From an uncultured bacterium (GTDB taxonomy: Bacteria > Fidelibacterota > Marinisomatia > Marinisomatales > UBA1611), in the NCBI GenBank assembly GCA_943788175.1, contig CALSPG010000001.1:1-64000 (forward strand): a stretch of DNA of 64,000 nt. The letters run 5' to 3'. Under the pieces are notes generated by a model that saw only the letters and a program-made list of their open reading frames with translations, ran no database searches and was not told where the DNA came from. Both the position numbers and the translations under genes were made by a program. Shown one piece after another: positions 3,126-34,196 of this stretch (its first letter is position 1; every line of letters starts with the position of its first letter).

Positions 3126-3677
3126 ATGTTATCTAGAATAATAGCCTTGTTATTTATATTACTTTTATCTCCGTTATATCTTTTCATTTCAATAGTTATT
3201 TTTCTCGGTAACGGAAGACCTATTTTTATCACTCAAAATAGAACATTAATAGGAAAAAAAAATATTAGACTTTATAAATTTAGAACAATGAAGATCGGTA
3301 CTCCAGATAAAGCGTCCAGATTATTAAGTGGTCCAGAAAAATATATATTAAGCACTGGTAAAGTACTTAGACAGTGGAGTTTAGATGAATTACCACAATT
3401 GTTCAACGTTTTTAAAGGTGAAATGAATTTTATCGGTCCGAGACCATTGCTTGAAAATGAACGAGATGTATTTAAAATGAGAATTGATAAGAATATCATT
3501 GAAATTGAACCTGGTATTACTGGCTGGGCTCAAGTCAATGGCAGGGATAACATTACTAATGAAGAGCGAGTAGAATACGATTATTTTTACATGAAAAATA
3601 GAAGTATCATTTTTGATTTTAAAATTCTTGTCATGACATTTATCAAAACAATTCTGCGAAAGGATATTTCGCATTAA
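3126..3677 (+). CDS. Bacterial sugar transferase (undecaprenyl-phosphate phosphoglycosyltransferase)
   Basis: YKFRTM, SLDELPQLFNV, GPRP and PGITGWAQVNGR motifs. Confidence 0.92.
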   Translation: MLSRIIALLFILLLSPLYLFISIVIFLGNGRPIFITQNRTLIGKKNIRLYKFRTMKIGTPDKASRLLSGPEKYILSTGKVLRQWSLDELPQLFNVFKGEMNFIGPRPLLENERDVFKMRIDKNIIEIEPGITGWAQVNGRDNITNEERVEYDYFYMKNRSIIFDFKILVMTFIKTILRKDISH

Positions 3678-4738
3678 TTCTAATAAAATTATTTTCATTG
3701 TGGGAGCCAGGCCAAATTTTGTTAAAATAGCTCCAATTCTTAATGTATATAAAAAAAATAATTCAGACTTTGTACTAGTTCATACAGGTCAACATTATGA
3801 TAAAAATATGTCTGATGATTTTTTTACAGATTTAAGTATGCCGCAGCCTGATTACTTTTTAGGAGTTGGCTCAGGAACACATGCCTCTCAAACTGCTAAA
3901 GTAATGGTTAAGTTTGAAGAGATTTGCTTAAAAATTAGGCCAAAATTAGTTGTTGTTCCTGGCGATGTTAATTCAACTCTTGCATGTGCGATTGTATGTT
4001 CAAAGTTACATGTTCCAGTAGCACATGTCGAAGCTGGATTAAGATCTTTTGATAAAAAAATGCCAGAAGAAATTAATAGAATACTTACAGACAGGATAAG
4101 TGATATTTTATTTGTTACTGAAAAAAGTGGATTAATTAACCTTGAAAAGGAAGGAATCAGCTCAGATAAAATACACTTTGTAGGAAATACAATGATAGAT
4201 TCTTTAGTTAAGTATTTAGATAGAGCAATTAGTCTAAAAGAGTGGGAAAATTCTAGTTTGACAAAAAATAATTATTGTTTATTAACAATGCATAGGCCCT
4301 CAAATGTTGATGATGTTAAAAATATAGAAAAAGTATTTGACATAATTAAATTTTTCTCTGATAAAATCAATTTTATTTTGCCAGTACACCCAAGACTTAA
4401 AAAAACCATAACAAGTTTGGAAGCTTCACAGCCAAAAAACTTACTTGTAATTAATCCTTTACCATATATAAAATTTTTAAGTTTATTATACGGGGCTAAG
4501 ATTGTTGTAACAGATAGTGGTGGTGTTCAAGAAGAGTCAACATTCCTAAAAATACCATGTATTACTCTTAGAGAAAATACTGAAAGACCAGTAACTATTG
4601 AACATGGAACAAATTATCTTACGGGGTTAAATGTGAAATTAATTACTAAAACATTTGATAACATTTTTAAAAGGTAAATTAAAAACCTCTAAAGAAATTA
4701 AGTTTTGGGATGGAAATTCTTCCCAGAAAATTTTATGA
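3673..4738 (+). CDS. wecB: UDP-N-acetylglucosamine 2-epimerase (non-hydrolysing); frameshift near 3' end, end coordinate approximate
   Basis: VGARPNF, HTGQHYD, HVEAGLRS, TDSGGVQEE and ENTERP; conserved 'FWDGNSSQKI' tail continues in another frame after 4677. Confidence 0.88.
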
Positions 4739-4759
4739 AATATTAGAAGGATATCAAGC

Positions 4760-6170
4760 CTGAAGTTCATTTTACCTAGTTCTTTATTTTTTCATCATTA
4801 ATTATTGGACAGAGTTATTCTACAGATTTCTTTATCTACAATGACAATGAAAGTGACCTTGATCATGGTATAGGGTGGAGTAATAACTCCAGCTTTCCTC
4901 AGCTTAGACCGGAACATTTAAATAAAAAAAATAAACCTACAACTTATGACTCTTTAAACATAGATCTCAGCCTTGGAGCAATTTCTAATAACAAAGATAT
5001 TGGTTTATTATCTTATAGTAGTTTTTCATTTAAAAATGTTTATGCCTTTGCATACAATCGTATAGTAACAAATCCTTCATCATTTGACCGATTTTCTGGA
5101 AAAGCTAGAAAAGTTAGAAGGTTTGGATTCAATTCTTTTGAAACTGATCAATCTGGAATAGGTTATCAATAAAGATAATTATTTTATACAGTTTGGTAGA
5201 GGCCGACAAATTTGGGGAGTTGGTACTGATATGCAAATAAGCCTCAGTAAATATTCCAATCCTTACGATTATGGAATAATTTCTTTTTTATATAATAATT
5301 ATAGATTTGTTTATTTTCATGGCTATCTTGAAAATATTGAGGGTTGGAACAGGTATATTAATGGAAGAGGAATAGAGTTTAATAATTATAATAATTTTTT
5401 GATTAGCTTAAGTGAAATAATCATTTATAGTGGTAAAAATAGACCTTTTGATTTTGCCTACTTAAATCCAATTTTATTCCATTTTGAAATCGAGATGAAC
5501 GAAAGACAAAATAATCTAGAGCTAAGCGATGGAAGTGCAAATGCTGTTTGGCAATTTTCCATTTGATTATTTTTCTAAAAACCAAATTTAGAATTTCTTT
5601 TAATTTTATAATAGATGAACTTGTGATTGATAAAATTGAGAGAGAATCAAAGAAGGATAATGGATTAGGATACTCCTTAAAAATTTCTAAAAGTGTTTTA
5701 AATAAAGGAGAAAGAAATCTAAGTTTTTATGCCACTAGCATAGCAATTGGCACCCATACTTTTAGACATGATGTTGGTACCAATAATTTTGTTAATAGAG
5801 GGACGTCCCTCTAGGATGGCAGGGAGGTAGTGATTCAAAGCAAGGATCAATAGGTTTTATTTTTTAAGAATAAAAGCTCTTTAATAATAGATGGAGAAAT
5901 TATTAAATATACTTTTGGCAAAGAGTCTTTAATAAATAGCTCTTATTTACCTTACCAAGAATTTTCAGATTACCTTAAAACATCTTTTCCAAAGTGGTTT
6001 GATAAAAAACTAATTATATTACTAAATTAAGAATTCAATATATACATACCGAAAAATCTGAAGTATCAGTATCTCTAAAAATCGGTGATTATTCTGATCA
6101 AAAATAAATCTAAAAATGAACTTAAAATATTTTTTGCTTACTATTTTGATTTTATTTACTATAATAAATT
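4760..6170 (+). pseudogene. Multiply frameshifted outer-membrane capsule-assembly (Wzi-like) protein; boundaries approximate
   Basis: Fragments GRGRQIWG, PFDFAYLNP, IDELVID and LGWQGGSDS spread over several frames (ORFs 5231-5566, 5548-5814). Confidence 0.45.
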
Positions 6171-6244: not shown

Positions 6245-6912
6245 CTATTCTAATTTTATAATTCGCAATATTATACTCCATCCGTCCTTTAGTTTTAATT
6301 TTTTACCCTCTTTTACACTTCTTCTTTTATAATGTATTAGTACTTGCTCAATTGATGCTTTTTTTAAAACAAGTTTAAGCCAAAGTTTCAGCCTCGATAC
6401 TAAAATTACGACTTTTTATTTTTAATGATTTAAATAGTTCCTTATCTAATATTCTAACACAACATAGAACATCCTTAAAATTAGATTTAAATAAAAAATT
6501 AAATATTCCATTGATTAGATAGTTTCCAAAAGAATTAATATTTGAAAAGATATGTTTATTATTTTCCCAACCTCATGCCTACAAGCACATCTTTATTACT
6601 TGACTCAAAATTTTTAATCAACTCTGGTATTTGATTTAGATGTATCTCTAAGTCCACCATCAATTAAGATAATATTTTTTTTTGTAGCTAGTTCGAGACC
6701 TTTAGTTATAGAAAACCCTTTGCCATCTATTTTTATTGTTGTGAATTATTTTAAATGAGTTTTGTTTCTCAAGCAAAGATTTTGTTTTATCAGTTACTTC
6801 CGTCATTTATTATTATGATTTCTATAATTCGAGAATATTTATCTAAAATTTTTAATAACCTATTTACCGCCTTTTCCTCATTATAAACTGGTATTATTAA
6901 TGAATATTTCAT
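6245..6912 (-). pseudogene. Frameshifted glycosyltransferase family 2 (DPM1-like)
   Basis: Reverse strand begins MKYSLIIPVYNEEK and ends KLKLKDGWSIILRIIKLE*; several internal indels. Confidence 0.7.
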
Positions 6913-14779: not shown

Positions 14780-16453
14780 ATGAGATCAGACTTAATAAAA
14801 AAAGGTTTTGATAAGGCGCCACATAGGAGCCTTTTGAAAGCTACTGGACAAATCAAGAGTGATAGTGATTTTGAAAAACCATTTATTGGTATAGCAAATT
14901 CATATATAGATCTTATACCTGGCCATGTTCATTTGCAAAAGTTTGGTGCAACCGCAAAAGAAGCTGTCAGAGATGCTGGCGGTGTCCCTTTTGAATTCAA
15001 TACTATTGGTGTAGATGACGGAATTGCAATGGGACATATAGGGATGAGGTACTCATTGGCTAGTAGAGAGTTGATTGCAGACAGCGTTGAAACGGTAGCA
15101 GAAGCACATCGTTTGGATGGTTTAATTTGTATTTCTAATTGTGATAAAATTGTTCCTGGCATGTTGATGGCAGCAATGAGGATAAATATACCTACTATTT
15201 TTGTCTCTGGTGGCCCTATGAAAGCCGGAATAAATGAGAAAGGTGAAAAAATTGATTTAGTTTCAGTTTTTGAAGGGGTGGGTAAGTACAATAGTGGCGA
15301 TATGACAGAACATGAGCTTAAAGACCTCGAAGATAATGGCTGTCCGACTTGTGGGTCCTGTTCTGGAATGTTTACGGCTAACTCTATGAATTGTCTCATG
15401 GAAGTTTTGGGCTTAGCGCTTCCAGGAAATGGAACGATACTTGCAACAGATCCTTCAAGGTTAGATCTAGTTAAAAAAGCAGGAGAAATTATCATAGAGT
15501 TAATTGAAAAAGATCTCAAGCCCAGAGATATTGTGAACGAGGATACAATAGCAAATGCTTTCATTTTAGATATGGCAATGGGTGGCAGTTCGAATACTGT
15601 TCTACATACCATTGCAGCATCAATTGAAGGTGGTCTTGACTTTGATTTATCGATGTTAAATAATCTAAGTAAGAAAACACCTTATATCTGTAAAGTTAGT
15701 CCAGCTACGCCAAATGTACACATGGAAGATGTTTTAAATGCTGGCGGTATTTCAGCGATTTTAAGGGAACTCTCATTTAAAAGTGACCTTCTTAATCTAG
15801 ATAGACCAACTGTAACGGGTAAAACATTAGGCGAAACAATTAAGGGCGCAGAAAATTTAAATAATGATGTAATAAGAACAATAGAAAATGCATTTTCTGA
15901 TGAAGGTGGGCTAGCTGTTTTATATGGCAACATAGCACCCAAAGGTTCTATTGTTAAAACAGCTGCTGTTGATAAAAATATGACCCTGTTTAAAGGCCCT
16001 GCAAGGATTTATGAATCTCAAGATGATGCCCAGGAAGGTATACTAAAAGGTGAAGTCGAAGAAGGTGACGTCGTCGTTATAAGGTATGAGGGGCCTAAAG
16101 GCGGTCCTGGGATGCCAGAAATGCTTGCGCCAACTAGTGCAATTATGGGTATGGGTTTAGGTTCTAAAGTTGCACTTATAACGGATGGCAGATTTTCAGG
16201 AGGCACTAGAGGAGCATGTATAGGTCATATTTCTCCAGAAGCTGCTTCCGGAGGACCCATTGCAATAATTGAAGAAAAAGATCAAATAGAAATTGACATA
16301 AAAAATCGTACGATTAATTTAAAAATCGATAAAAGTACATTTGAGAATCGGATGAAAAATTTAAATGAGTTTGAACCAAAAATTACGACTGGATATTTAG
16401 GCAGATATGCTAGGATGGTTACTTCTGCTGATACCGGTGCTATTTTAAAATGA
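14780..16453 (+). CDS. ilvD: Dihydroxy-acid dehydratase
   Basis: [34 protein letters not shown] and TDGRFSGG. Confidence 0.97.
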
Positions 16454-16468
16454 TAAGATGAGAATATT

Positions 16469-18193
16469 ATGGGTAAAGTAAGATTAACCGGAGCTGAAAT
16501 AATCTGGGAGTGTTTAATTCGTGAAAGAGTCAATGTTGTATTCGGTTATCCTGGCGGTGCAATACTACCAACATATGATGCGCTTGGAAAGTATAGTGAT
16601 AAAGTTCATCATGTTTTAACTAGGCATGAACAGGGAGCTACACATATGGCAGATGGCTATGCTCGCTCATCAGGAAAAGTTGGAGTTGCAATGGCAACAT
16701 CAGGTCCTGGAGCCGCGAATATGGTTACTGGCCTTGCTACAGCAATGATGGATTCGATCCCAATTGTTTGTATTACAGGGCAGGTACCAAGACCAGCTAT
16801 CGGAAGCGATGCCTTTCAAGAAATGGATATTTCAGGAGCCGTGATACCTGTAACAAAACACAGCTATTTAGTAATGGAAATTGAGAATCTTGCAAGAACA
16901 ATTAAAGAAGCATTTGCTATCGCCAGATCAGGAAGGCCTGGTCCTGTTTTGGTTGACATTCCTAAAGACTTGCAAGCTGAAGAGTTTGACTTTATTTATC
17001 CAGAAGAGCCAATTCTTCTGCCTGGAGCGAATCTTGTGACTAGTGATATTGACTCGAATAGCCTTGAACAAGCGGCAAGTTTAATAGCTGAATCAAAAAG
17101 ACCCGTAATCTTGGCAGGTCATGGTATCTTATTATCAGGTGCATCAAGTGAAGTAATTGAATTATCTGAGAAAGGAAATATCCCTCTTAGTTGGACTCTT
17201 TTAGGTTCAGGTGCCGTTCCTGCAAGCCATCACTTAAATATGGGTATGATGGGAATGCATGGAGAGTTTGCTGCAAATAATGCTATTCAAAAAGCTGATT
17301 TACTTATTGCTTGTGGAATGAGATTCGATGACAGAGTTACAGGGAATACGAATACTTATTCACTCGAATCAAAAAAAATACATATTGAAATCGATCCTTC
17401 AGAAATTAATAAAAATGTTCCTGTTGACGTTGCTCTTGTTGGAGATCTTAAATCAATTCTTACAAAACTTATACCTCTTTTAAAAGAAGGGCAAAAGAGT
17501 TCTTGGACTGATAAGATTGAAGATTGGCGTAAAGAATCTCAATCGAGAGATATAATAAATATGAATACTGAAATGCTCTACGGGGCTCAAGTAATAAGTG
17601 ACATTTGGAAAGAAACAAATGGCGATGCTATTGTTGTTTCAGATGTAGGTCAACATCAAATGCTTGAAGCGCAGTATTACAAGCATGATGAACCAAACAC
17701 ACTGCTTACTTCAGGTGGTCTAGGAACTATGGGTTTTAGTTTGCCAGCTGCTATAGGTGCAAGTTTCTCTAATCGCGATAAAGATATTTGGGTTATTGTT
17801 GGCGATGGTAGTATTCAAATGACTATAACAGAACTTGCGACTGCAGTTCAAGAAAATACAAATATTAAAATTGCTATTATTAATAATGGCTATTTAGGAA
17901 TGGTCAGACAATGGCAGCAATTATTTTACGATTCGAGATATACTGAAACACCTATTAGTAGTCCTGATTATGTAAAATTATCAGAAGCTTATGGTATGAA
18001 GGGTTTCCGAGTTAAATCTCGTGCAGAAATTTCAGATACTATGAAAGAGGCACAAAATATCAAAGGGCCAGTTTTAATAGAGTTTGTTGTGGAGCAGCAC
18101 GATATGGTTTATCCTATGGTAGCAGCTGGTGCAGATCTTGATGAGATGATAAGTCGACCTGTCCACGAACAATTTAAAGACGCAGAAATGTAG
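16469..18193 (+). CDS. ilvB: Acetolactate synthase large subunit
   Basis: GYPGGAIL, RHEQGA, TSGPG, DVGQHQM, SGGLGTMG and GDGS...NNGYLGMVRQWQ. Confidence 0.96.
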   Translation: MGKVRLTGAEIIWECLIRERVNVVFGYPGGAILPTYDALGKYSDKVHHVLTRHEQGATHMADGYARSSGKVGVAMATSGPGAANMVTGLATAMMDSIPIVCITGQVPRPAIGSDAFQEMDISGAVIPVTKHSYLVMEIENLARTIKEAFAIARSGRPGPVLVDIPKDLQAEEFDFIYPEEPILLPGANLVTSDIDSNSLEQAASLIAESKRPVILAGHGILLSGASSEVIELSEKGNIPLSWTLLGSGAVPASHHLNMGMMGMHGEFAANNAIQKADLLIACGMRFDDRVTGNTNTYSLESKKIHIEIDPSEINKNVPVDVALVGDLKSILTKLIPLLKEGQKSSWTDKIEDWRKESQSRDIINMNTEMLYGAQVISDIWKETNGDAIVVSDVGQHQMLEAQYYKHDEPNTLLTSGGLGTMGFSLPAAIGASFSNRDKDIWVIVGDGSIQMTITELATAVQENTNIKIAIINNGYLGMVRQWQQLFYDSRYTETPISSPDYVKLSEAYGMKGFRVKSRAEISDTMKEAQNIKGPVLIEFVVEQHDMVYPMVAAGADLDEMISRPVHEQFKDAEM

Positions 18194-18204
18194 GGAGACT
18201 TTTT

Positions 18205-18726
18205 ATGAAACAAACATTAATTTTATTCATGCAAGATGAGCCAGGTGTTTTAAATCGTATAGCTAGTTTGGTTAGAAGAAGAAATTTTAATATAGATAGT
18301 ATTGTAGCTGGAAGAACTGAAAAAAATGGTATAACAAGAATGACCTTGGTTGTAAATGAACCAAATAAAGCTAAAAGAAAAACCATATATAATAATTTAA
18401 AAAAACTCGTTGATGTCTATGATGTTGTTGATGCTTCTAATGAAAACTGCCATATTCGTGAACATGCTTTAGTTAAGGTATCAATTAAGCCTGGTGATTT
18501 CAAAGAAATTGAAGACTTAGTTGCTAAAGGTAATTGTAGAATTTTAGATGATGAACCAGATTCAATGATATTAGAACTGTCCGGAAACGAAATTACAGTT
18601 GAAAAGAGTATAAGTTTTTTAAAGAAATTTAAAATTTTAGAACTTTTACGTTCAGGCAAAATGGCGATGATATCTGGCAATCAAAAAAAAAATAAGCCGG
18701 TTCTTGTAAAATCTGAACCCATATAA
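18205..18726 (+). CDS. ilvN: Acetolactate synthase small (regulatory ACT) subunit
   Basis: DEPGVLNRIASLVRRRNFNIDS, ELLRSG. Confidence 0.92.
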   Translation: MKQTLILFMQDEPGVLNRIASLVRRRNFNIDSIVAGRTEKNGITRMTLVVNEPNKAKRKTIYNNLKKLVDVYDVVDASNENCHIREHALVKVSIKPGDFKEIEDLVAKGNCRILDDEPDSMILELSGNEITVEKSISFLKKFKILELLRSGKMAMISGNQKKNKPVLVKSEPI

Positions 18727-18743
18727 AGAGGAAAATTTAAAAA

Positions 18744-19790
18744 ATGAAACAAATAGATATAAATGGATATAAAGAAGAAATTATAGAAAGGTCTGATTTT
18801 CCAATTGAAAAATGTAAAACTATTTTGAAAAATAAAGTAACTACCATCCTTGGTTATGGCCCGCAAGGGAGAGGCCAGGGATTAAATATGCGAGATCAAG
18901 GATTTAATGTGATTCTTGGATTAAGGAAAGGAGCTAGTTGGGTTAAAGCTTTGGAAGATGGTTGGGTTGCTGGTGAAAATTTATTTGAAATTGAAGAAGC
19001 CACAAAAAAAGGTAATATCATTCAGTTCTTATTATCGGATGCAGGCCAAATTCAAGCCTGGCCAACTGTTAAAAATAATCTTATTGAAGGTGACACCCTA
19101 TACTTTTCCCATGGTTTTGGTATTGTGTTTCATTCAGACACAAACATTATACCTCCGAAAAATGTAAATGTTGTTCTAGTTGCGCCAAAAGGAAGCGGTT
19201 TAACCGTCCGCAATCATTTTTTAGAGGGGAGAGGTATTAACTCATCTTACGCTGTGTTTCAAGATTATGATGGCTCAGCTAAAGAAATAGCAATTTCTAC
19301 CGCCTTTGCGATTGGTTCTGGGCATCTATTTGAAACAACATTTGAAAAGGAAGTCCACAGTGATTTAACAGGTGAGCGTTGCGTTCTAATGGGCTTAATT
19401 CAAGGTGCTTTTCTTGCCCAGTATGAAGTCCTTAGAGAAAATGGGCATTCACCATCAGAGGCATATAATGAAACTATTGAAGAAGCGCTCGAAAGTCTTT
19501 ATCCTCTCGTTTCAGAAAAAGGAATGGACTGGATGTATAGCAACTGTTCAACGACAGCTCAAAGGGGTGCGCTAGATTGGGCACCTAGGTTTAAAAATGT
19601 TCTAAAGCCTGTTATAAATGAATGCTATGAAAAGGTTGTTAGCGGAGAGGAAGCTAAAATATCTATCTCCTCAAACTCAAGAGATGACTACAGAGATCAA
19701 TTAAATAAAGAGCTTGATGAAATAAATAACCAAGAGATGTGGTTAGCCGGTAGAGAGTTAAGAGCCCTGAGGCCTGAAAATAATCAATAG
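18744..19790 (+). CDS. ilvC: Ketol-acid reductoisomerase (Bacteroidota/fungal-like form)
   Basis: GYGPQGRGQ, FSHGF, VAPKGSG, SDLTGER and CSTTAQRGALDW. Confidence 0.95.
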   Translation: MKQIDINGYKEEIIERSDFPIEKCKTILKNKVTTILGYGPQGRGQGLNMRDQGFNVILGLRKGASWVKALEDGWVAGENLFEIEEATKKGNIIQFLLSDAGQIQAWPTVKNNLIEGDTLYFSHGFGIVFHSDTNIIPPKNVNVVLVAPKGSGLTVRNHFLEGRGINSSYAVFQDYDGSAKEIAISTAFAIGSGHLFETTFEKEVHSDLTGERCVLMGLIQGAFLAQYEVLRENGHSPSEAYNETIEEALESLYPLVSEKGMDWMYSNCSTTAQRGALDWAPRFKNVLKPVINECYEKVVSGEEAKISISSNSRDDYRDQLNKELDEINNQEMWLAGRELRALRPENNQ

Positions 19791-25300: not shown

Positions 25301-27145
25301 ATGTGTGGAATAGTTAGTTATATAGGGAATAAAGATCCTATACCAATTTTAATAAAGGGACTTAGAAGGCTTGAATATCGCGGATATGACTCTGCTGGTT
25401 TAGCCTTATTAGATGGTAAGATCTTAAAGAGTGTAAAAAAAGCTGGGAAAGTATCTGAATTATCAGATCAACTATCTGTTTCGCCACTCAAAGGAAATTG
25501 TGGAATTGCTCATACTAGGTGGGCAACGCACGGTGTTCCCAATGATATAAATGCACATCCTCATTTAGACAAGACCGGGAAAATAGCATTAGTTCATAAT
25601 GGAATAATTGAAAATTATGATTCAATAAAAAAGACATTAGAAAAAAGAGGTGTTGCTTTTTCTAGTGATACTGATTCAGAGGTTCTCGTTCAATTGATAT
25701 CTGAGATATATCACAATGATGAAGATCAATTAGATTTTAAAGATGCAGTAAAAGCTGCATTGCAAGAGGTTGTTGGTGCCTATGGAATTGTTGCTATGTG
25801 TTCCGATGAACCTGACTCACTTTTTGCAGCAAGAATGGGAAGCCCATTAGTTTTAGGTGTGGGTGAGAATGAGTTTTTATTTGCGAGTGATGCTTCGCCA
25901 ATTATTGAATACACAAGAAACGTAATCTATTTAGATGATGGTGAATTTGTTGAGGTAAAAAGTTCTGCCTATTCAATATCAAATATTTATACGGAAGAGA
26001 TTGTTTCAAAAACAATCACAAAGATAGATTTAACGATTGAAGAAATTGAGAAAGGTGAGTTTCCGCACTTTATGTTAAAAGAAATTCATGATCAAAAACA
26101 TTCTATAAGTGACACTCTTCGTGGTAGACTAAATTTAGAAGATGGAACCTCAATGTTAGGTGGTATTAATGATTATTTGCCAAATATTTTGGGAGCATCA
26201 AGAATATATATAACTGCTTGTGGAACTTCCTGGCATGCTGGTCTAATTGGTAAACATCTAATAGAAGAATATGCAAGAGTACCTGTACATGTAGAATATG
26301 CTTCAGAATTCAGATATCGTAATGCAATTATTGATGCAAATACTATTTTGATAGCCATTAGCCAATCTGGAGAAACTGCGGATACATTAGCTGCAATTAA
26401 AAAATCAAAAGAATTAGGTGCATTGACATTAGGAATATGCAATGTTGTTGGTAGTTCAATATCTAGAGAGACTGATGCGGGTATTTTTACTCATGCTGGG
26501 CCAGAAATAGGTGTAGCTTCTACAAAAGCCTTTACTGCGCAAGTTACAGTGCTAATTATGCTTGCGCTTAAAATAGGTAGGAAAAAAGGCGTATCCTTGC
26601 ATAGAGGAAAAGAATTAATAAGTTCATTAAAAAACATTGATATCAATGTTTCAAAAACATTAGAAACTATTAAATTAGTTAGACAAGTTGCAAAGGCAAC
26701 TCGCAAAGCAGATAATTATCTTTACTTAGGTAGAGGCGTTAATTTTCCGGTAGCATTAGAAGGTGCATTGAAATTAAAAGAAATATCTTATATACATGCT
26801 GAAGGTTATCCAGCTGCTGAGATGAAACATGGTCCAATTGCTTTAATTGATAAAGATATGCCAGTAGTTTTTCTTGCTCCTCAAGATGACACGTTTTTGA
26901 AAATTTTATCTAATATTGAAGAAGTAAAAGCTAGGGGTGGTATAATTATTACAGTAACAGATGAAGAGAATGATTCCTTGAACTCTTTATCAGACTATGT
27001 TTTAATTACACCAAAATCTCATCGCTATATTTTTCCAATAACGAGTTCTATTATATTACAAATGTTGGCTTATGAGTTAGCTCAATTTAGAGGCTGTGAA
27101 ATAGATCAGCCCAGAAATCTTGCGAAATCTGTAACAGTGGAATAG
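25301..27145 (+). CDS. glmS: Glutamine-fructose-6-phosphate aminotransferase
   Basis: MCGIV, LEYRGYDSAG, HTRWATHG, SQSGETAD and PRNLAKSVTVE*. Confidence 0.98.
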   Translation: MCGIVSYIGNKDPIPILIKGLRRLEYRGYDSAGLALLDGKILKSVKKAGKVSELSDQLSVSPLKGNCGIAHTRWATHGVPNDINAHPHLDKTGKIALVHNGIIENYDSIKKTLEKRGVAFSSDTDSEVLVQLISEIYHNDEDQLDFKDAVKAALQEVVGAYGIVAMCSDEPDSLFAARMGSPLVLGVGENEFLFASDASPIIEYTRNVIYLDDGEFVEVKSSAYSISNIYTEEIVSKTITKIDLTIEEIEKGEFPHFMLKEIHDQKHSISDTLRGRLNLEDGTSMLGGINDYLPNILGASRIYITACGTSWHAGLIGKHLIEEYARVPVHVEYASEFRYRNAIIDANTILIAISQSGETADTLAAIKKSKELGALTLGICNVVGSSISRETDAGIFTHAGPEIGVASTKAFTAQVTVLIMLALKIGRKKGVSLHRGKELISSLKNIDINVSKTLETIKLVRQVAKATRKADNYLYLGRGVNFPVALEGALKLKEISYIHAEGYPAAEMKHGPIALIDKDMPVVFLAPQDDTFLKILSNIEEVKARGGIIITVTDEENDSLNSLSDYVLITPKSHRYIFPITSSIILQMLAYELAQFRGCEIDQPRNLAKSVTVE

Positions 27146-27390
27146 CAGAAACAACCGGTTATCCTTACCCCTTAAAACTCATTGTAAGATTCTCATTTTC
27201 AGTTATTACCACTAAATTGTGGGATTCAAATTATAGTGAATATCAAGAGTATTTGTATAAACGTATTTGTCAATATAAAGAGGATTTTCTTACCCCTATC
27301 GGTTACAGAAAGATTTCTAAAATATTCAATGATGAGGGATTAAAAACCCCTCGAAATACAGAATTTGGTATTAGACCCATTCTGTGGTAG
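27142..27390 (+). pseudogene. Truncated recombinase-type HTH-like ORF
   Basis: LWDSNYSEYQEYLYKRI...IGYRKISKIFNDEGLKTPRNTEF; reads in the -1 frame through the glmS stop. Confidence 0.55.
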
Positions 27391-27466
27391 TGGTAATGTT
27401 GGAAAGGTATGTGATGTATTAGAACGAAACTTTGTTGGTTACGATTTGAATAACTATATAAGTTGA
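27365..27466 (+). pseudogene. C-terminal fragment of an N4/N6 DNA methyltransferase (beta-class, motif I)
   Basis: LVLDPFCGSG...LERNFVGYDL*. Confidence 0.7.
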
Positions 27467-27480
27467 AACATTTAATGTTT

Positions 27481-28473
27481 TTATTCAACTATCAAATTTT
27501 GATTGTTCACTACAAAATCAAAGGATAAATCTGATAAGCTATTTCCATTCACAGTGGCACCCCAAGGGCCATGACCTTTACCCTGTAATGGATAATAAAC
27601 AAAATCAATTTCATTTGTTTCCCATATAGTTTTTAAATCTTCAGCACTACTAAAAGGTACGGTGGTGTCTTCTGTTCCATGAGCTATAAACAATGATGGG
27701 TTATTTGAGTTAAACCTTTGGTATCCATAAACTAACTCCAGTATTTCTATAGATGCATTATTACCCCAAAAGTCTAAAATTGTTTGTACCTCATAGGTTT
27801 GAGAAAGATTAGTTGTTGATAAGGTACTATCTTCACTTAAACTTATTTCATCTTTATAGTCACCTAATTCTGATACACCGAGTCCTATAGAAGTAATTGC
27901 TCCTGCAGAACCACCACCAACAGTAATATAATCAGTATTAATGTGATAATTATCGGCATTAGCTATAATCCACCTTAAAGCAGCTTTGGCATCTCTGTGA
28001 GCAGGGTACATTGCATAAATTTGGTTGAGATTTGAAGGGGCACCACCAGAAGTGGCATTAATCCATTCTTGTGGAATCGTTCCCATTTGGTCTCTAAGTC
28101 TGTAGTCGATTGAAAATACAACAAAACCTCTTGATGCATAATAATTTGCCATATCCACAATGGCATCCTGTTGCTTGGAACCACCAACAAATGCACCGCC
28201 ATGAATTAACATTAGTAAAGGTCGATTTTGTGAATTATTTTCAGGAACATAAGAGTCCATATATAAAGGGAGTGCAGTTGTATTTGAACTGTTCCAATAA
28301 TCATGACTAAGTCCTTCAGCATAAATGATGTCTTCTGTTATATTAACATCATAGGTAGCATTCAACTTCACTGTTGGTGAAGAACTCTCATTTGTAACTA
28401 TGTTATCATCATCTTTTTCACATGAAATCAAAAAGACCATAATTAGTAAACTTGCAAAAATCTGTTTTATCAT
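27481..28473 (-). CDS. Alpha/beta hydrolase (HSL-like esterase) lipoprotein
   Basis: LISC lipobox, HGGAF, DYRL, GGSAG nucleophile elbow, HGTEDTTVP and GH. Confidence 0.88.
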   Translation of the reverse strand: MIKQIFASLLIMVFLISCEKDDDNIVTNESSSPTVKLNATYDVNITEDIIYAEGLSHDYWNSSNTTALPLYMDSYVPENNSQNRPLLMLIHGGAFVGGSKQQDAIVDMANYYASRGFVVFSIDYRLRDQMGTIPQEWINATSGGAPSNLNQIYAMYPAHRDAKAALRWIIANADNYHINTDYITVGGGSAGAITSIGLGVSELGDYKDEISLSEDSTLSTTNLSQTYEVQTILDFWGNNASIEILELVYGYQRFNSNNPSLFIAHGTEDTTVPFSSAEDLKTIWETNEIDFVYYPLQGKGHGPWGATVNGNSLSDLSFDFVVNNQNLIVE

Positions 28474-28651
28474 AATTTAATTTTTTAAATTTTCTTGTTA
28501 GACGCTTAAAATCATTTAAGGTTTAATTTAATTAACCCCAACCAAGAAACAATGGGATAAACCAAAACTCTCATCTTACATAAAACATATGAAATTAGAT
28601 GTGGGAAAGGATTAAGGGGTAAGGATAACCACCCCACAGAATTACCCCATC

Positions 28652-28663
28652 ACGGTTGAGTAG
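28652..28663 (+). repeat. Synonymous copy of glmS terminal codons (ACG GTT GAG TAG)
   Basis: Encodes TVE*; flanked by the ACCCCACA/TGTGGGGT inverted repeat (28631-28638 / 28668-28675). Confidence 0.7.
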
Positions 28664-28700
28664 ATAATGTGGGGTGAAGGGGTTGTCCAAAGGAATAATA

Positions 28701-29078
28701 TTAAAAACGTTTTTTAGAAATCAGTTTCCCTTTTTCATAAATTACTTCGGATATCTTGTTTCCATCATAATCCCATTCAGTACTTAAACCTTCTAGTTTC
28801 CCACGTTTGTAAGAAAATTCAAAACCCCTACTTCCATCTTCATACCACCCTCGATTTAATCCATGTTCTTTCCCATTTCTAAAATATAACTCAGATGACA
28901 TTACTCCATTAGAGTAATAGGTCTCTTTCTTTGTTTTAATTAACCCTCGAGATCCTTTTCTGTAATACTCTATGTAACGTATATAATCACCCGTAGAGTC
29001 TTTTTCAGTATGAATAATTTCTTGGGAATACATAACCGAACCAATTAATACTGATATAACAAATATATACTTTATCAT
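28701..29078 (-). CDS. Exported MORN-variant (YwqK-like) repeat protein
   Basis: YYSNG, NGKEHG..WYEDG and GKLEG..EWDYDG repeats; signal peptide; no Ala. Confidence 0.75.
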   Translation of the reverse strand: MIKYIFVISVLIGSVMYSQEIIHTEKDSTGDYIRYIEYYRKGSRGLIKTKKETYYSNGVMSSELYFRNGKEHGLNRGWYEDGSRGFEFSYKRGKLEGLSTEWDYDGNKISEVIYEKGKLISKKRF

Positions 29079-29212
29079 ATAAACTCCATTTCTAATCGTT
29101 AATACTACACAAAAGTATCCCCAAGAAATAAAGTAAAACTTGGGGTTTTATTTTTTATAAAGTTATTATTTGTAAATTAGGTGTGATATGAGAAAACCAA
29201 AATAGACATCAG

Positions 29213-29386
29213 ATGAATTATGTCACTCAATATGGTTGGGTATTCTGTGTTCTAATAACTATCCTTTTTTTGATAAAATTTATATTCAATATTACGGAAG
29301 GTGAATATGACTCTAAAAGTCTTTATGGAAATATAAGTTTAATTGGGCTTTCTTTAATTAGTTATTGGTCAAGAACTGATAAATGA
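29213..29386 (+). CDS. Small membrane protein (57 aa, no Ala)
   Basis: MNYVTQYGWVFCVLITILFLIKFIF...; two hydrophobic segments; below the ORF-track cutoff. Confidence 0.4.
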   Translation: MNYVTQYGWVFCVLITILFLIKFIFNITEGEYDSKSLYGNISLIGLSLISYWSRTDK

Positions 29387-29429
29387 ATCCCTTTATAATC
29401 ATATCTTTCCTTTTCAATTCCTTTAAGGT

Positions 29430-30851
29430 TGATTAAATGAAAAAACTCCTTCCATTATTATCTGTATTATTTTTGATTTACTGGAGTTGTGAAGATAAAA
29501 AAGAACCTCCGACTGAAGTAACCTTGTGGGGAGAAATTTATTCAGTGGAAGACACTGAACGTTTAGATTTTCATCGTAACGAACTTACAGGTCCAATCCC
29601 ATCAGAGATTTGGAATCTGACGAATTTAACATATTTAGATTTAAGTGAGAATCAATTCACCGGTTCTATCCCCTCAAAGATTGGTAATCTGACGAATCTG
29701 ACTGTTTTGGATTTAAGTCAGAATCAACTCACCGGTTCTATCCCCTCAAAGATTGGTAATCTGACGAATCTGACTGTTTTGGATTTAAGTCAGAATCAAC
29801 TCACCGGTTCTATCCCCTCAAAGATTGGTAATCTAACGAATCTGACTTATTTGTCATTAAGTGAAAATCTACTAACAGGTGAAATCCCATCAGAGATTTG
29901 GAATCTGACTAATCTGACTGAATTGAATTTATTCAATAATGACCTCACCGGTTCCATCTCTCCAGAGATAGGAAATCTGACCAATCTGACTTTATTGTTA
30001 TTAAGTGATAATCACCTCACTGGTTCTATCCCATCAGAGATTGGTAATCTAACGAATCTGACTGAACTGGGTATATACGGATCGGATATAGGGGTTAATC
30101 AATACCCAGGTTCTATTCCACCGGAAATAGGTAATTTGACCAACCTGACATATTTAAGTTTAGGTAATAAACAATTAACAGGTTCCATTCCACCAGAGAT
30201 AGGAAATCTGACGAATCTGACTTATTTGGATTTATATCGTAATGAACTCACAGGTTCTATTCCACCAGAGATAGGAAACCTGGTCAATCTAGAAAAGATA
30301 TTTTTACATCAAAATGAACTCACAGGTTCTATTCCATCAGAGATAGGTAATATGACCAATTTGATTAGTATCACTTCAGATAATAATCAACTATCAGGTT
30401 CTATTCCACCTGAGATAGGAAATCTGACGAAGCTGAGAGGATTGTATTTAAGTCGTAATGAACTCACCGGTTCCATACCACCTGAGATAGGAAACCTAGA
30501 CAGTTTGAGTCAATTTGATTTAAATAAAAATTACCTCACAGGTTCCATCCCACCAGAGATTGGTAATCTGACGAGACTTACTAATTTAGATTTCAGGGAT
30601 AATTACCTCACAGGTTCTATTCCATCAGAGTTAGGGGATTTGACCAATCTGTACAGATTGTATCTAGACTATAATCGACTGACAGGTTTAATACCAGAGA
30701 CAATATGTGATTTAAATATTAATTGGAGTAGTAGTTTCGCTGTTTCTCAAAACCAACTCTGTCCCCCATATCCATCTTGTATTGAAGATTATGTGGGGTA
30801 TCAGAGAACGAGTGGTTGTGATTAAATGAAAAAACTCCTTCCATTATTATC
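29430..30851 (+). repeat. 33-bp direct repeat TGATTAAATGAAAAAACTCCTTCCATTATTATC (29430-29462 / 30819-30851)
   Basis: Identical copies; the first contains the LRR gene start, the second its stop. Confidence 0.9.
29437..30825 (+). CDS. Leucine-rich-repeat lipoprotein (~15-16 plant-type 24-aa LRRs)
   Basis: WSC lipobox; LTGSIPPEIGNLTNLxxLxLxxN repeats; Cys-containing C-cap. Confidence 0.92.
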   Translation: MKKLLPLLSVLFLIYWSCEDKKEPPTEVTLWGEIYSVEDTERLDFHRNELTGPIPSEIWNLTNLTYLDLSENQFTGSIPSKIGNLTNLTVLDLSQNQLTGSIPSKIGNLTNLTVLDLSQNQLTGSIPSKIGNLTNLTYLSLSENLLTGEIPSEIWNLTNLTELNLFNNDLTGSISPEIGNLTNLTLLLLSDNHLTGSIPSEIGNLTNLTELGIYGSDIGVNQYPGSIPPEIGNLTNLTYLSLGNKQLTGSIPPEIGNLTNLTYLDLYRNELTGSIPPEIGNLVNLEKIFLHQNELTGSIPSEIGNMTNLISITSDNNQLSGSIPPEIGNLTKLRGLYLSRNELTGSIPPEIGNLDSLSQFDLNKNYLTGSIPPEIGNLTRLTNLDFRDNYLTGSIPSELGDLTNLYRLYLDYNRLTGLIPETICDLNINWSSSFAVSQNQLCPPYPSCIEDYVGYQRTSGCD

Positions 30852-30980
30852 AGTAAAAGACTTTTTCTTTTCATTATCTCTCTTCTTTATAAATAACATA
30901 CAATCCAAATACTCAAACCCATCTTTATGGATTGGGTGTATGTTTTTACAGGTTGGACATAAGGTAGGTTTCTTCTTCAT
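30822..30980 (-). CDS. Small CxxC-containing protein (52 aa)
   Basis: MKKKPTLCPTCKNIHPIHKDGFEYLDC; start overlaps the upstream ORF's stop (TAATG). Confidence 0.4.
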   Translation of the reverse strand: MKKKPTLCPTCKNIHPIHKDGFEYLDCMLFIKKRDNEKKKSFTDNNGRSFFI

Positions 30981-31312
30981 TAATGAACCTCTAACATTTT
31001 AACTCTGAAATTTCCAATACCATCTAGGATAGGTTGGGAGAAGAACTCATCTCTCTTTTTCATCTTCTTAATCATACTATCTACCGTAGTTCTACTCTTA
31101 CCAATTTTGTACCCATTCTTAACTAAATACTGGTGGATTTTTGTATAACCTAATCCTTGATTATGAAGTTCCCTAACTTTGTTATGTGTCTGTATTCTAC
31201 TATCTGATAATTGTTTTGTAAGATAGGGGGTAGGATTGAATTGATGAGATGTAATTACATAATCAAAAATGAGATGTGGGGTGATATCATCACTACCTAC
31301 AGAACTTACTCC
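30980..31312 (-). CDS. HTH-like protein, paralogue of 31321-31635; no canonical start before the conserved part
   Basis: TPHLIFDY...RELHNQGLGYTKIHQYLVKNGYKIGKSRTTVDSMIKKMKKRDEFFSQPI. Confidence 0.65.
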   Translation of the reverse strand, partial: GVSSVGSDDITPHLIFDYVITSHQFNPTPYLTKQLSDSRIQTHNKVRELHNQGLGYTKIHQYLVKNGYKIGKSRTTVDSMIKKMKKRDEFFSQPILDGIGNFRVKMLEVH

Positions 31313-31327
31313 ACCACCGTGGAGTAG
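31306..31327. repeat. Back-to-back TVE*/VVE* site with palindrome TACTCCAC-CACC-GTGGAGTA
   Basis: ACC GTG GAG TAG on + strand (31316-31327); GTG GTG GAG TAA on - strand. Confidence 0.75.
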
Positions 31328-31635
31328 AGTTTAGAAGTTCAACTCCATATTTAGTTTTTCAATTTTATACCAAAACTCACCACTTAAATAATACTTACTA
31401 CAACAACCCTGTTTCAGAGGAGAGAAAAGTTATTCAAGATGAAGTCATGAGACTTTATCATGAAGGTTGGGGTTACACAAAGATACATAAACACCTAATC
31501 AAAAATGGTTTCAAGATTGGTAAAAGTAGAACCTGTGTTGATAGTATCATTAAGAATAGATTGAAGAGGGAAGAGTTCTTAAATCAACCCATCATAAAAG
31601 AATATAGAAATTTTGATATTGAGTTTGTATATTAA
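31321..31635 (+). CDS. HTH-like protein; homology extends upstream of the ATG at 31447
   Basis: TPYLVFQF...RLYHEGWGYTKIHKHLIKNGFKIGKSRTCVDSIIKNRLKREEFLNQPI. Confidence 0.65.
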   Translation, partial: GVEFRSSTPYLVFQFYTKTHHLNNTYYNNPVSEERKVIQDEVMRLYHEGWGYTKIHKHLIKNGFKIGKSRTCVDSIIKNRLKREEFLNQPIIKEYRNFDIEFVY

Positions 31636-31655
31636 TCAAGATTAAAGGAGTCAGA

Positions 31656-32210
31656 ATGAAGAAAATTTTATTTATCTCAACATTTATATTTATAGTCGGT
31701 TGTGAAAAAGAACTTAAACTCCAAGAGGTTGGTCGGAATGTATATTATTTTAACAAGGATGGTGAGTTATTTATTGTTGATGATGAATTTCAAAAAAAAG
31801 TTGACACTCAGTTTTCTGTACCAATTGTAAAAAATAAATTTACCTTGGATAAAACTATTGGCTGGGACGGATTAGTTTTGGAATCCAAAGTAGTAGTTAA
31901 ATACATAGAGGGAGATTGTCACTTTAATGTAAAATTAAGTAAAAATAAATTAACTAGTAACTTTGAGAATACGAGTACTTACAAAAGAATTATGAATGAT
32001 TCCAATACTTTAGTGTCTATTCAATTAAAAGAAGAAGATAATTTTTTAATTAAAGAAATTGAAGTATCTCACTCAAAACATCTATTAAATAGATTTGTTG
32101 ATAGTACTTCTGTAACAGGATTTAATTATGGTGGAGTAGTCTCAATTTCAGAGAATTTATTTAAAAAAGTAAAAAGTATTGATCTAATGACTGTAATTGA
32201 CGATTTATAG
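31656..32210 (+). CDS. Hypothetical lipoprotein (no Ala)
   Basis: AAGGAG RBS, IVGC lipobox, 184 aa. Confidence 0.75.
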   Translation: MKKILFISTFIFIVGCEKELKLQEVGRNVYYFNKDGELFIVDDEFQKKVDTQFSVPIVKNKFTLDKTIGWDGLVLESKVVVKYIEGDCHFNVKLSKNKLTSNFENTSTYKRIMNDSNTLVSIQLKEEDNFLIKEIEVSHSKHLLNRFVDSTSVTGFNYGGVVSISENLFKKVKSIDLMTVIDDL

Positions 32211-32251
32211 TCATTTTCCATATTTCTGGAACTTCCAAACTACACTCATCT

Positions 32252-32263
32252 ACAGTCGAATAA
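32252..32263 (+). repeat. Synonymous copy of glmS terminal codons (ACA GTC GAA TAA), likely right island boundary
   Basis: 10/12 identity to the glmS end; followed by a GTTAACTTG/CAAGTTAAC hairpin. Confidence 0.7.
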
Positions 32264-32546
32264 TTTCAACTTTGTTGGTTAACTTGTAGTCTCAGACACC
32301 AAGTTAACGTCGACAAAACCATAACTATAAAACTTACAGAAAAACACTATAATGGATTCTCATTATCTCATTATGAGGTTTTGTTTATTTTTGTTACAGT
32401 TTTTTCAAATTATTAAGCCTTTTCACAAATTTTTTCTACTATTAAACCTAATCTATAGGTAATTATTGGCCCGGCGGCCTTTCAAGCAAGAATGTTTTTC
32501 CTCAAAAAATGCTTGTTGATTACATGCGGGTTTATAAGCTTTACGC

Positions 32547-34196
32547 TTGATTTTTATGCTAAAAATAATATTAATTAGCTTATCCATTTTTTCTATCGGA
32601 TGCGAAACAAAAAAAGAGCGAAAAGAGGAGCGGGCACTTACTATTTATCAAGAAAATACCGCGTCTTGGGTTAGGAACTTTAATCCACTTTCAACATCGG
32701 GAACTGCTAGGTGGCCTACATCATGTGGAATATATGAACCTCTTTTTATTTATAATTCAATGCAGGGTGAATATATACCTTGGCTTTGCACTGACTATAA
32801 ATGGGAAGATAATAATAAGACGTTAATAATGTACGTTAGAGAAAATGTGTTGTGGTCAGATAAAACCCCTTTTTCATCGGAAGATATTGCTTTTACATTT
32901 AACTTGAAAAAGAAACATAAAGGCCTAGATACTAGAGACTCTTGGAGCTATTTAAAAAGCGTAAAAGCATTAAATAAAACAACTGTTGAGTTCAAGTTTA
33001 GTCGAATTTATGTTCCGGGTTTTGACGCAATCGTTGGGCAACCAATTGTAGCTAAACATATATGGGAAAAAATTAAAGATCCAATACGTTTTTCAAATCC
33101 AAACCCTGTTGGGACAGGACCTTTTACTGAAATTCTACGTTTTGACAATCAAGTTTGGGAGCTTGGCAAGAATCCAAACTATTGGCAACCTAATAAACCA
33201 GAAGTGAAAAAACTGAAGTTCCCTGCATTTCCAAGCAATGAACAAGTCACGCTTGCTCTAATTAGTGGAGATTTAGATTGGGCCGGAGCATTTATCCCCG
33301 CAATTGATAGAGTTTATGCAAAAAAAAACCCAGAATTTCATAAGTACTGGTTCTCCGAAACGGGGCACACAACATTTTTTTATACAAACACAATGAACAA
33401 AGTTTTAAAAGATTCAAAAATTCGGAAAGCTATTAGCTATGCAATTGATAGAAGTTTAGTCGTAAAAGTAGGTATGTATAACTACACGGAACCTGCTCAT
33501 GTAACTGGTATATCCGGTAAAATGGCAAAATGGCATCCAAAAGATATAGAAACAAAAGAAAACTGGGTTAAATATAATCCAATACTATCTAATCAGATTT
33601 TTGATGATGCGGGGTATTATAAAAATAAAAATGGTTTTCGTGAAGATAAAAATGGGGACCCATTATCCTTTGATATAATTGTTGTCTCCGGTTGGAGTGA
33701 TTGGATTAGATCTGCCCAAGTTATATCGCAGAATCTTAAAAAAGTTGGTATAAAAGCAAAAGTGAAAACATATGACTTTGGCGCCTGGATGAGCAGAATG
33801 CAAAAAGGTGAGTTTGATATGGCTATAGGTTGGGCAGAAAAGGGGACAAACCCTTTTCCTTTATATAGAGGCATGATGTCATCTAGGTATATAAAACCCA
33901 TAGGGAAAGATGCTGACGCAAATTGGCATAGGTTTTCAACTGCTGAAGTCGATTCTTTATTATTACAATTTGAAAAAACATCAGACAAATATGTGATTAA
34001 AGATATTTTACATAAACTGCAAAATATATTCATTGATTATGCTCCTGCTATACCTCTATTTGCAGAGGTGTCATGGGGAGAATGCAATACGACTTATTTT
34101 ACTAACTTCCCGAGTAAAAAAAACCCCTATGCGCCTTTGTCACCAAACTCCCAGCTAGAAAATTTAATGGTATTAGTTAATGTGAAGGTACGATGA
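32547..34196 (+). CDS. Family-5 ABC substrate-binding lipoprotein, oligosaccharide (cellobiose/chitobiose-type) subgroup
   Basis: SIGC lipobox; NFNPL, YEPLF, NPVGTGPF and GWSDW. Confidence 0.85.
   Translation: MIFMLKIILISLSIFSIGCETKKERKEERALTIYQENTASWVRNFNPLSTSGTARWPTSCGIYEPLFIYNSMQGEYIPWLCTDYKWEDNNKTLIMYVRENVLWSDKTPFSSEDIAFTFNLKKKHKGLDTRDSWSYLKSVKALNKTTVEFKFSRIYVPGFDAIVGQPIVAKHIWEKIKDPIRFSNPNPVGTGPFTEILRFDNQVWELGKNPNYWQPNKPEVKKLKFPAFPSNEQVTLALISGDLDWAGAFIPAIDRVYAKKNPEFHKYWFSETGHTTFFYTNTMNKVLKDSKIRKAISYAIDRSLVVKVGMYNYTEPAHVTGISGKMAKWHPKDIETKENWVKYNPILSNQIFDDAGYYKNKNGFREDKNGDPLSFDIIVVSGWSDWIRSAQVISQNLKKVGIKAKVKTYDFGAWMSRMQKGEFDMAIGWAEKGTNPFPLYRGMMSSRYIKPIGKDADANWHRFSTAEVDSLLLQFEKTSDKYVIKDILHKLQNIFIDYAPAIPLFAEVSWGECNTTYFTNFPSKKNPYAPLSPNSQLENLMVLVNVKVR

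Follow-up and report, generated by a model that had tools for sequence, protein, structure and literature searches.

The question raised by this locus is what the open reading frames (ORFs) are that follow the end of glmS, or copies of that end, have no start codon of their own and keep a fixed register to the site. The window, that is, the whole stretch of DNA that was analysed, comprises 64,000 nt (positions 1–64,000 of contig CALSPG010000001.1 of assembly GCA_943788175.1, a genome of 2.27 Mb that is 92% complete). An earlier note on this DNA had taken these ORFs for genes that are expressed by −1 frameshift or coupled initiation from the gene upstream. We propose, with a probability of almost nine in ten, that the start-less ORFs are instead the 3′ pieces of large serine recombinase (LSR) genes which have an internal attP and are split by integration at the glmS end. 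The gene and the sites concerned are the following:

25301–27145, + strand: glmS, 614 aa, ending in ...SVTVE-stop according to the ORF list; its last codons are the proposed bacterial attachment site
27134–27145, + strand: core 1, ACAGTGGAATAG, the genuine glmS end
28652–28663, + strand: core 2, ACGGTTGAGTAG; a near-identical core with its right flank is found in the loci L039 and L044
31316–31327, + strand: core 3, ACCGTGGAGTAG, within a palindrome (31307–31326) and common to two divergent fragments
32252–32263, + strand: core 4, ACAGTCGAATAA, the final copy ahead of a conserved oligopeptide-transporter operon that begins at 32547

The core ACNGTNGARTAR, which encodes T-V-E-stop, is present four times in the 64 kb and on the + strand only (starting at 27134, 28652, 31316 and 32252), against 0.28 copies expected, and none of 100 shuffles reached four. 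The copies are directly oriented and spread over 5.1 kb 3′ of glmS. The glmS orthologs of related genomes are 64–97% identical and show the same junctions.

Two of the ORFs diverge from core 3 and a third one follows glmS itself. The divergent pair consists of:

30980–31330, − strand: the − copy, a putative recombinase C-terminal fragment of the inverted type, which reads core 3 in antisense and codon-aligned (L-L-H-G-G) and has no start codon
31285–31635, + strand: the + copy, a putative recombinase C-terminal fragment of the direct type, which crosses core 3 in −1 register (R-G-V-E-F)

Both are stop-to-stop frames of 116 codons apiece, they share 50% identity over ~70 residues (E 3e-20) and no further copy of the pair is found in the 2.27-Mb genome. 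In agreement with the earlier note, an ATG, GTG or TTG ahead of the conserved N-terminal part is missing in all three window ORFs; the ATG of the + copy at 31447, which gives a 62-aa ORF, and the TTG of the third copy at 27217 both fall within the conserved region. The AlphaFold model of the + copy predicts three helices, with pLDDT values of 88–97 for residues 21–70 and low values for the first ~20. The − and + copies had no match to PF07508 in Pfam at E ≤ 10, the small ORFs gave sub-threshold matches alone (HTH_SB, E 0.026, and PF07508, E 0.15, the latter for the third copy) and the ~95-aa helix-turn-helix (HTH) tail has no Pfam match. With the tail as query, Foldseek returned zero matches against the PDB at E ≤ 0.001, and a wide structure search with VIA-align found generic HTH domains with Z ≤ 7.5, headed by a small-terminase HTH (Z 7.5) and including the Tn3 resolvase HTH (Z 5.8) and a serine-integrase recombinase domain (Z 5.7, rmsd 7.0).

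The origin of the tails is indicated by longer proteins that contain them. We have found unsplit LSRs in metagenomes (P0142, of 665 aa, P0144, P0174, P0175, and P0176) whose last ~95 residues are the tail ORF; P0142 and P0144 came from an exhaustive profile search, and P0174, P0175, and P0176 from a search limited to longer proteins. In these proteins the junction coincides exactly with the core-encoded residues (...LLNGGG..., ...LLNSHE..., ...NHRRVEF...). The + copy aligns with residues 528–641 of P0174 at 70% identity over 114 aa (E 1e-47), an alignment that spans the junction, and the − copy aligns with the C-terminus of P0175 (residues 251–356) at 54.5% identity over 110 aa (E 1.4e-35). 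Pfam was run on P0142, P0174, P0176, and the body of an intact element in the genome G089, described below. All four matched the N-terminal resolvase catalytic domain PF00239 and all four matched PF07508, P0174 and the G089 N-part also matched the zinc ribbon PF13408, and the domains found were those of serine recombinases only, with no match to the tyrosine recombinase fold PF16795. The catalytic motif YCRVST / YIRCST is visible in the LSR proteins and absent from the window itself. Judging from these alignments, the window ORFs are most probably the contiguous, in-frame ends of LSR genes. The earlier proposals that they form part of large-serine-recombinase biology and that they are meant as the continuation of an upstream ORF have been borne out.

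Two elements retain both parts of the gene. One of these intact integrated elements lies in G089, a genome of the window's order (locus L038), where the features are:

17035–18885, − strand: glmS
15416–17074, + strand: LSR body of 552 aa, which converges on the glmS end and overlaps it
3268–3600, + strand: C-part, which begins at a second core 13.8 kb off, on the same strand as the body

Joining the G089 sequence in silico from core to core gave a 653-aa ORF without stops, with 47.7% identity to P0142 over 640 aa (query 5–641, subject 23–651). The same layout was found over 6.5 kb in a Crocinitomicaceae MAG record (G233, locus L079), in which the body runs two codons beyond the core and then ends; joining its parts in silico gave a 665-aa product without stops and with 43.8% identity to P0142 over 650 aa. 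Split architecture, in-frame reconstitution, and unsplit genes were all observed in these data. The attP reconstructed for G089 includes inverted arms of 13 nt, and the dyad axis that scores best falls on the A|C bond within the Thr codon, with 19 of 30 positions complementary versus 13 for the next best; this axis is in the top three at three of the four sites tested, where it is ambiguous. For 10 ORFs of the G089 element, PHROGs identified nothing but the two serine recombinases and one family without known function, and a search of viral contigs with P0142 gave no relative. Besides the split large recombinase, the 13.8-kb element (on G089:C3) thus has a second, small one of 228 aa at 4587–5273 (PF00239, E 2e-34).

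On this basis the attP would lie ~95 codons before the LSR stop, in the linker between the canonical body and the extra C-terminal HTH domain, and since it lies inside the LSR gene, integration at the glmS end would detach that domain. The elements would insert at the final glmS codons, Thr-Val-Glu-stop, which the element half-site would re-supply. The crossover may take place at the AC of the Thr codon, as the dyad symmetry suggests, in which case the element would supply the third base of Thr together with Val, Glu, and the stop, leaving glmS intact. Because the element must re-supply the glmS end codons, the cores would be alike in amino acids and different at wobble positions; the two cores of G033, GTTACGGTTGAATAA and GTCACCGTGGAATAG, have four wobble differences and both encode VTVE-stop. 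At one junction the body (~550–560 aa, with all catalytic and DNA-binding domains) would be truncated a few codons beyond the core, and at the opposite junction the HTH tail would be left with neither promoter nor start codon. The LSR frame would have to cross a site that bears a stop in the glmS frame, which would explain both the −1 register and the antisense reading: subfamilies oriented like glmS would use the −1 frame and the commoner, oppositely oriented ones would read the antisense strand. The window would then contain an array of such elements minus their recombinase bodies.

The distribution of the tails was surveyed to a wider extent. Homologs were present in 12 of 61 related genomes, in 28 of the 233 genomes of the window's order and in 90 marine metagenome protein clusters, and the named records that bear a tail belong to two phyla, Marinimicrobia/Neomarinimicrobiota and, with several marine families, Bacteroidota. 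From 45 unique copies, 39 could be analysed for the spacing between the core and the GWGY motif used as anchor:

reverse-complement core in frame 0, reading L-L/F-N/H/Y-x-x: 26 of 39 copies, exactly 156, 159, 168 or 171 nt from GWGY
direct core in the −1 frame: 3 of 39 copies (the window + copy, G007, and G196), 146 nt from GWGY
inverted core in another frame: 2 of 39 copies
core absent: 8 of 39 copies

The spacing is constant inside each subfamily, so the linkage of the ORFs to T-V-E-stop sites with fixed spacing and frame, as the earlier note had it, holds class by class across the 39 copies. The accompanying statement that the tails follow T-V-E-stop in the −1 frame applies to the three direct copies and fails for the 26 with an antisense core. 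Instead of the ordinary starts and variable spacing that the same note had set against its own proposal, 23 of the 39 copies have no ATG, GTG or TTG before the conserved part, and start positions vary among the other 16. Conservation also precedes the ATG, as expected by that note: in the 12 full copies the frame is open well 5′ of the HTH, similarity reaches ~35 codons 5′ of the + copy ATG, and the position of this ATG is Met in six of the 12 and V, I, R or W in the rest.

These data bear directly on the proposal that the tail is a separate HTH gene, translated from glmS by −1 frameshift or non-canonical initiation and acting as a position-sensing directionality factor. Six start-less tails (the window + and third copies, G007, G196, G024, and G164) are indeed co-oriented with glmS and located right after it in the −1 frame, as this proposal requires, but the 26 copies with an antisense core are preceded by unrelated flank, often a divergent gene start, and glmS is present in 12 of the 31 named loci, where the tail converges on it in 10 and is co-directional in only two. 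Such a mixture is what integration of elements of both gene polarities predicts. Moreover, the same ORF forms the in-frame end of LSR genes, and reading the last glmS codons revealed no X XXY YYZ slippery heptamer. We therefore consider translation from glmS very improbable; the upstream partner would be the recombinase body, to which the tail is joined in DNA by site-specific recombination.

The divergent pair surrounds the palindrome TACTCCAC-CACC-GTGGAGTA at 31307–31326, which had been described as a double site. The palindrome itself is present; its minus-strand reading, VVE-stop, departs from the T-V-E-stop pattern of the cores, and a single + strand core (31316–31327) appears from the comparison with relatives to serve both divergent ORFs. 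As both tails use this core, the palindrome would be one site with two tails of opposite polarity, where a relic of the inverted type meets, with its far end, the near end of one of the direct type. The same layout could be read as a shufflon-like switch, with the head-to-head paralogs as alternative C-terminal cassettes that are joined to a constant N-part by inversion at the palindrome. Two diverged cassettes do face away from a single core, and LSRs are able to invert DNA between inverted sites. However, the four cores of the island are all direct rather than inverted, an N-part is absent from both island and genome, and two abutting elements of opposite polarity give the same arrangement, each polarity being seen alone elsewhere. 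A shufflon is thus scarcely credible here, and we regard the pair as the tails of two split recombinase genes.

The remaining fragments at cores 1 and 2 are:

27146–27390, + strand: a third putative C-terminal recombinase fragment, directly oriented and in −1 register with glmS, of another subfamily and 3′-truncated; it contains a 19-bp arm motif at 27157–27175
28619–28690, − strand: putative relic of an unsplit junction, 24 codons, composed of the tail end of an N-part, the antisense core and the first C-part codons

The third frame (27100–27390) reads across the glmS stop in the −1 frame, as the earlier note had stated, but the relationship to the pair that it had seen is weak (hhalign probability of 5.8% over 23 in-register columns, besides the sub-threshold PF07508 match) and the tail belongs to a different subfamily. 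Its homologs in G024 and G164 likewise come right after the glmS T-V-E-stop, share the −1 frame and run on into a complete HTH tail, and on these alignments the third tail is most likely a genuine, 3′-truncated C-terminal piece from a separate subfamily. No partner recombinase was found for this subfamily. One candidate pair, the recombinase of G024:C37 and the third-subfamily tail of G024:C34, was rejected because the recombinase is complete and joining the two in silico gives a frame riddled with stops. That recombinase (locus L039, 4689–6611) shows 25% identity to P0142, has a C-terminal HTH-like tail of its own and ends 40 nt short of a T-V-E-stop core (6651–6662) without reading through it, a layout that may represent an intermediate arrangement. 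Abutting the truncated third tail, a 40-codon frame at 27344–27466 (+ strand; ...DPFCGSGN...FVGYD...) resembles, by eye, the motif at the C-terminus of a DNA methyltransferase. A perfect 19-bp inverted repeat (27157–27175 and 28612–28630) encodes the first tail residues at both of its sites, and its second arm forms part of the junction relic on the − strand, which was detected by tblastn with P0175 residues 241–264 (50% identity, E 0.002). The cores at 28652 and 32252 had been reported to lack an ORF of this kind; this is correct for the + strand, and on the − strand 28619–28690 holds the junction relic.

The region between glmS and the transporter operon can be described as an island with the following contents:

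27146–32263: island, a proposed array of at least three decayed elements between glmS and the transporter operon
27481–28473, − strand: esterase (Pfam), island cargo
28701–29078, − strand: ORF of 125 aa, island cargo
29437–30825, + strand: leucine-rich-repeat (LRR) protein (Pfam), island cargo
31656–32210, + strand: ORF of 184 aa, island cargo, lipoprotein-like by eye

Of the recombinase genes, the island retains three tails as well as one or two short remnants from the 3′ end of the body. Neither the island nor the 92%-complete genome as a whole gave a match to an LSR body or N-part, and a sensitive tblastn search of the island for body remnants gave nothing except the 24-codon relic at core 2; a candidate relic of an N-part tail 5′ of core 4 (NFQT, in register with P0174) was not significant, being equalled in 176 of 2000 shuffles. 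Given the absence of the recombinase body and that about nine orphan tails elsewhere have stops or 3′ truncations (L011, L013, L071, L072, L066, L070, L075, L077, and L078), we infer that the window tails are non-functional relics. Some retained function is nevertheless conceivable, as both window copies of the pair have full-length open frames and the damaged orphans are a minority. Short elements without a body that keep both junctions (G033, of 1.2 kb, G196, of 2.9 kb, and the window) are also not obviously predicted by simple decay.

A retained function could be that of a stand-alone DNA-binding protein (a repressor, an exclusion factor or an excision helper at the att arms) made from the orphan C-part through an internal or non-canonical start, a possibility that is compatible with the split-gene origin. 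The frames are intact in most orphans, orphan tails are greatly more numerous than recombinase bodies, the HTH core is predicted with confidence in the structural model, and the 62-aa ORF that starts at the + copy ATG appears among the predicted proteins of many metagenomes (P0014, which has this type of ORF, is found on 93 contigs). However, the internal Met is present in only half of the full copies, conservation and the open frame extend ~35 codons 5′ of it, a start before the conserved part is missing in most copies, about nine orphans are truncated or interrupted, and recent arrival may account for the intact frames. An independent product of the C-part is therefore rather unlikely.

The closest architectural parallel to a split LSR gene is found in the SSV-type suicidal tyrosine integrases of SSV1, pTN3, and pT26-2, in which, according to the accounts we draw on, the integrase ORF contains the attachment site and the integrated element carries int(N) at one of its ends and int(C), which has no start, at the opposite one; excision restores the gene (PMC8371274, PMC7253208). 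A 2021 review describes these integrases as exclusive to Archaea (PMC8371274). They are like the LSRs described here in having the site within the recombinase gene, which is split on integration, and they differ in being tyrosine recombinases (PF16795) of Archaea that target tRNA genes and have their catalytic domain split off. In our case a serine enzyme of Bacteria would target a protein gene at its end and lose nothing but an accessory HTH at the C-terminus, the catalytic body staying whole. The nearest precedent for a split used as a switch is the integration-dependent immunity of mycobacteriophage BPs and its relatives, in which the attP lies inside a phage gene and integration changes the protein made (PMC4557955). 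In those phages a tyrosine recombinase acts as the integrase and it is the repressor gene that is interrupted, with an effect that has been shown experimentally, in contrast to the putative switch considered here.

Among serine recombinases, phiC31, Bxb1, SprA of SPbeta, and the staphylococcal CcrAB share with the LSRs described here the Resolvase, Recombinase, and Zn-ribbon domains, and known LSRs likewise have short pseudo-palindromic att sites and target the 3′ end of a housekeeping gene, which is re-supplied. The directly repeated cores 3′ of the target may be comparable to the SCC composite islands at rlmH. To our knowledge, characterised LSR systems have their attP outside the recombinase gene; unlike them, the LSRs described here would combine an ORF-internal attP with an extra ~95-aa HTH tail. 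The literature searched contained no serine recombinase with an ORF-internal attP, nor one that targets glmS in this way, and a large LSR survey mentions neither ORF-internal attP nor glmS in the passages covered (PMC10083194). In the sources covered we found no published bacterial or serine-recombinase precedent for self-splitting, a design that they describe so far only for archaeal tyrosine integrases.

The glmS landmark itself is shared with Tn7 and Tn7-like elements. The 3′ end of glmS is recognised by this transposon as a safe insertion site (attTn7), and Tn7 transposes 3′ of glmS with a transposase complex and without duplicating the T-V-E-stop codons. The repeated coding ends together with the LSR genes point to conservative site-specific recombination in the present elements.

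If the reading proposed here is correct, self-splitting recombinases, presented in the 2021 review as a peculiarity of archaeal tyrosine integrases (PMC8371274), would now include a bacterial, serine type. The split would also explain the "hypothetical" proteins of 62 to 160 aa that are called in marine metagenomes, the assembly breaks right after glmS, and the origin of a flexible Marinimicrobia gene island. It has a bearing on how the direction of LSRs is controlled: as only an accessory DNA-binding domain is removed, these enzymes would offer a clean test of whether an extra domain can set LSR direction without a separate directionality factor. In an altered form, the position sensing suggested earlier is a possibility, since the protein made could differ between the integrated and the excised states. 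More tentatively, and with the odds against it, these could be a self-splitting LSR family of marine Marinimicrobia and Bacteroidota in which the tail-less prophage enzyme works as an RDF-independent switch of direction or immunity and the glmS end is a dock for cassettes. The free element would then make the full enzyme with the HTH, and after integration the tail would be silent at the other junction. Short units without a body that retain the two junctions, consisting of a tail and one or two secreted-protein genes, could be movable in trans and would build up the flexible glmS island.

Finally, we have looked at the island in natural populations using Logan contigs of four runs from four studies, in which contig depth is a coarse measure. 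In all four runs, the contigs over 30928–32354 had a depth of 3.4–7.5, versus 15.8–27.4 for the glmS and transporter flanks; contigs covering both tails and the 184-aa ORF (30937–32354) were 3- to 5-fold shallower than the flanks. This hints that the segment is carried by only part of the population. None of the metagenome contigs over the island in these runs links core directly to core, that is, neither excision nor an empty site was seen; one contig of flank-like depth from run X1 jumps from 29496 to 32325 with unknown sequence between.

Other parts of the island also behaved unevenly. The esterase segment (27363–28542) had a contig depth of ~50–260 with 0–1 differing letters, versus 16–27 at the glmS flank in the four runs; it is single-copy in this genome and was not found in 232 other genomes of the order, so near-identical copies must be carried by further genomes or strains that have not been sampled. 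The LRR gene and the 58-aa ORF next to it (both within 29437–31002) have their starts in a 37-nt repeat with 97% identity (29430–29466 and 30819–30855). Contigs connect 29490 to 30859, and one returns from 30797 to 29429, suggesting that the number of LRR genes varies within the population. In the drafts G002, G003, G007, G016, and G022, contigs very often end inside glmS or a few hundred bases past its stop, and such breaks fit a variable, repeat-bounded island that disrupts assembly.
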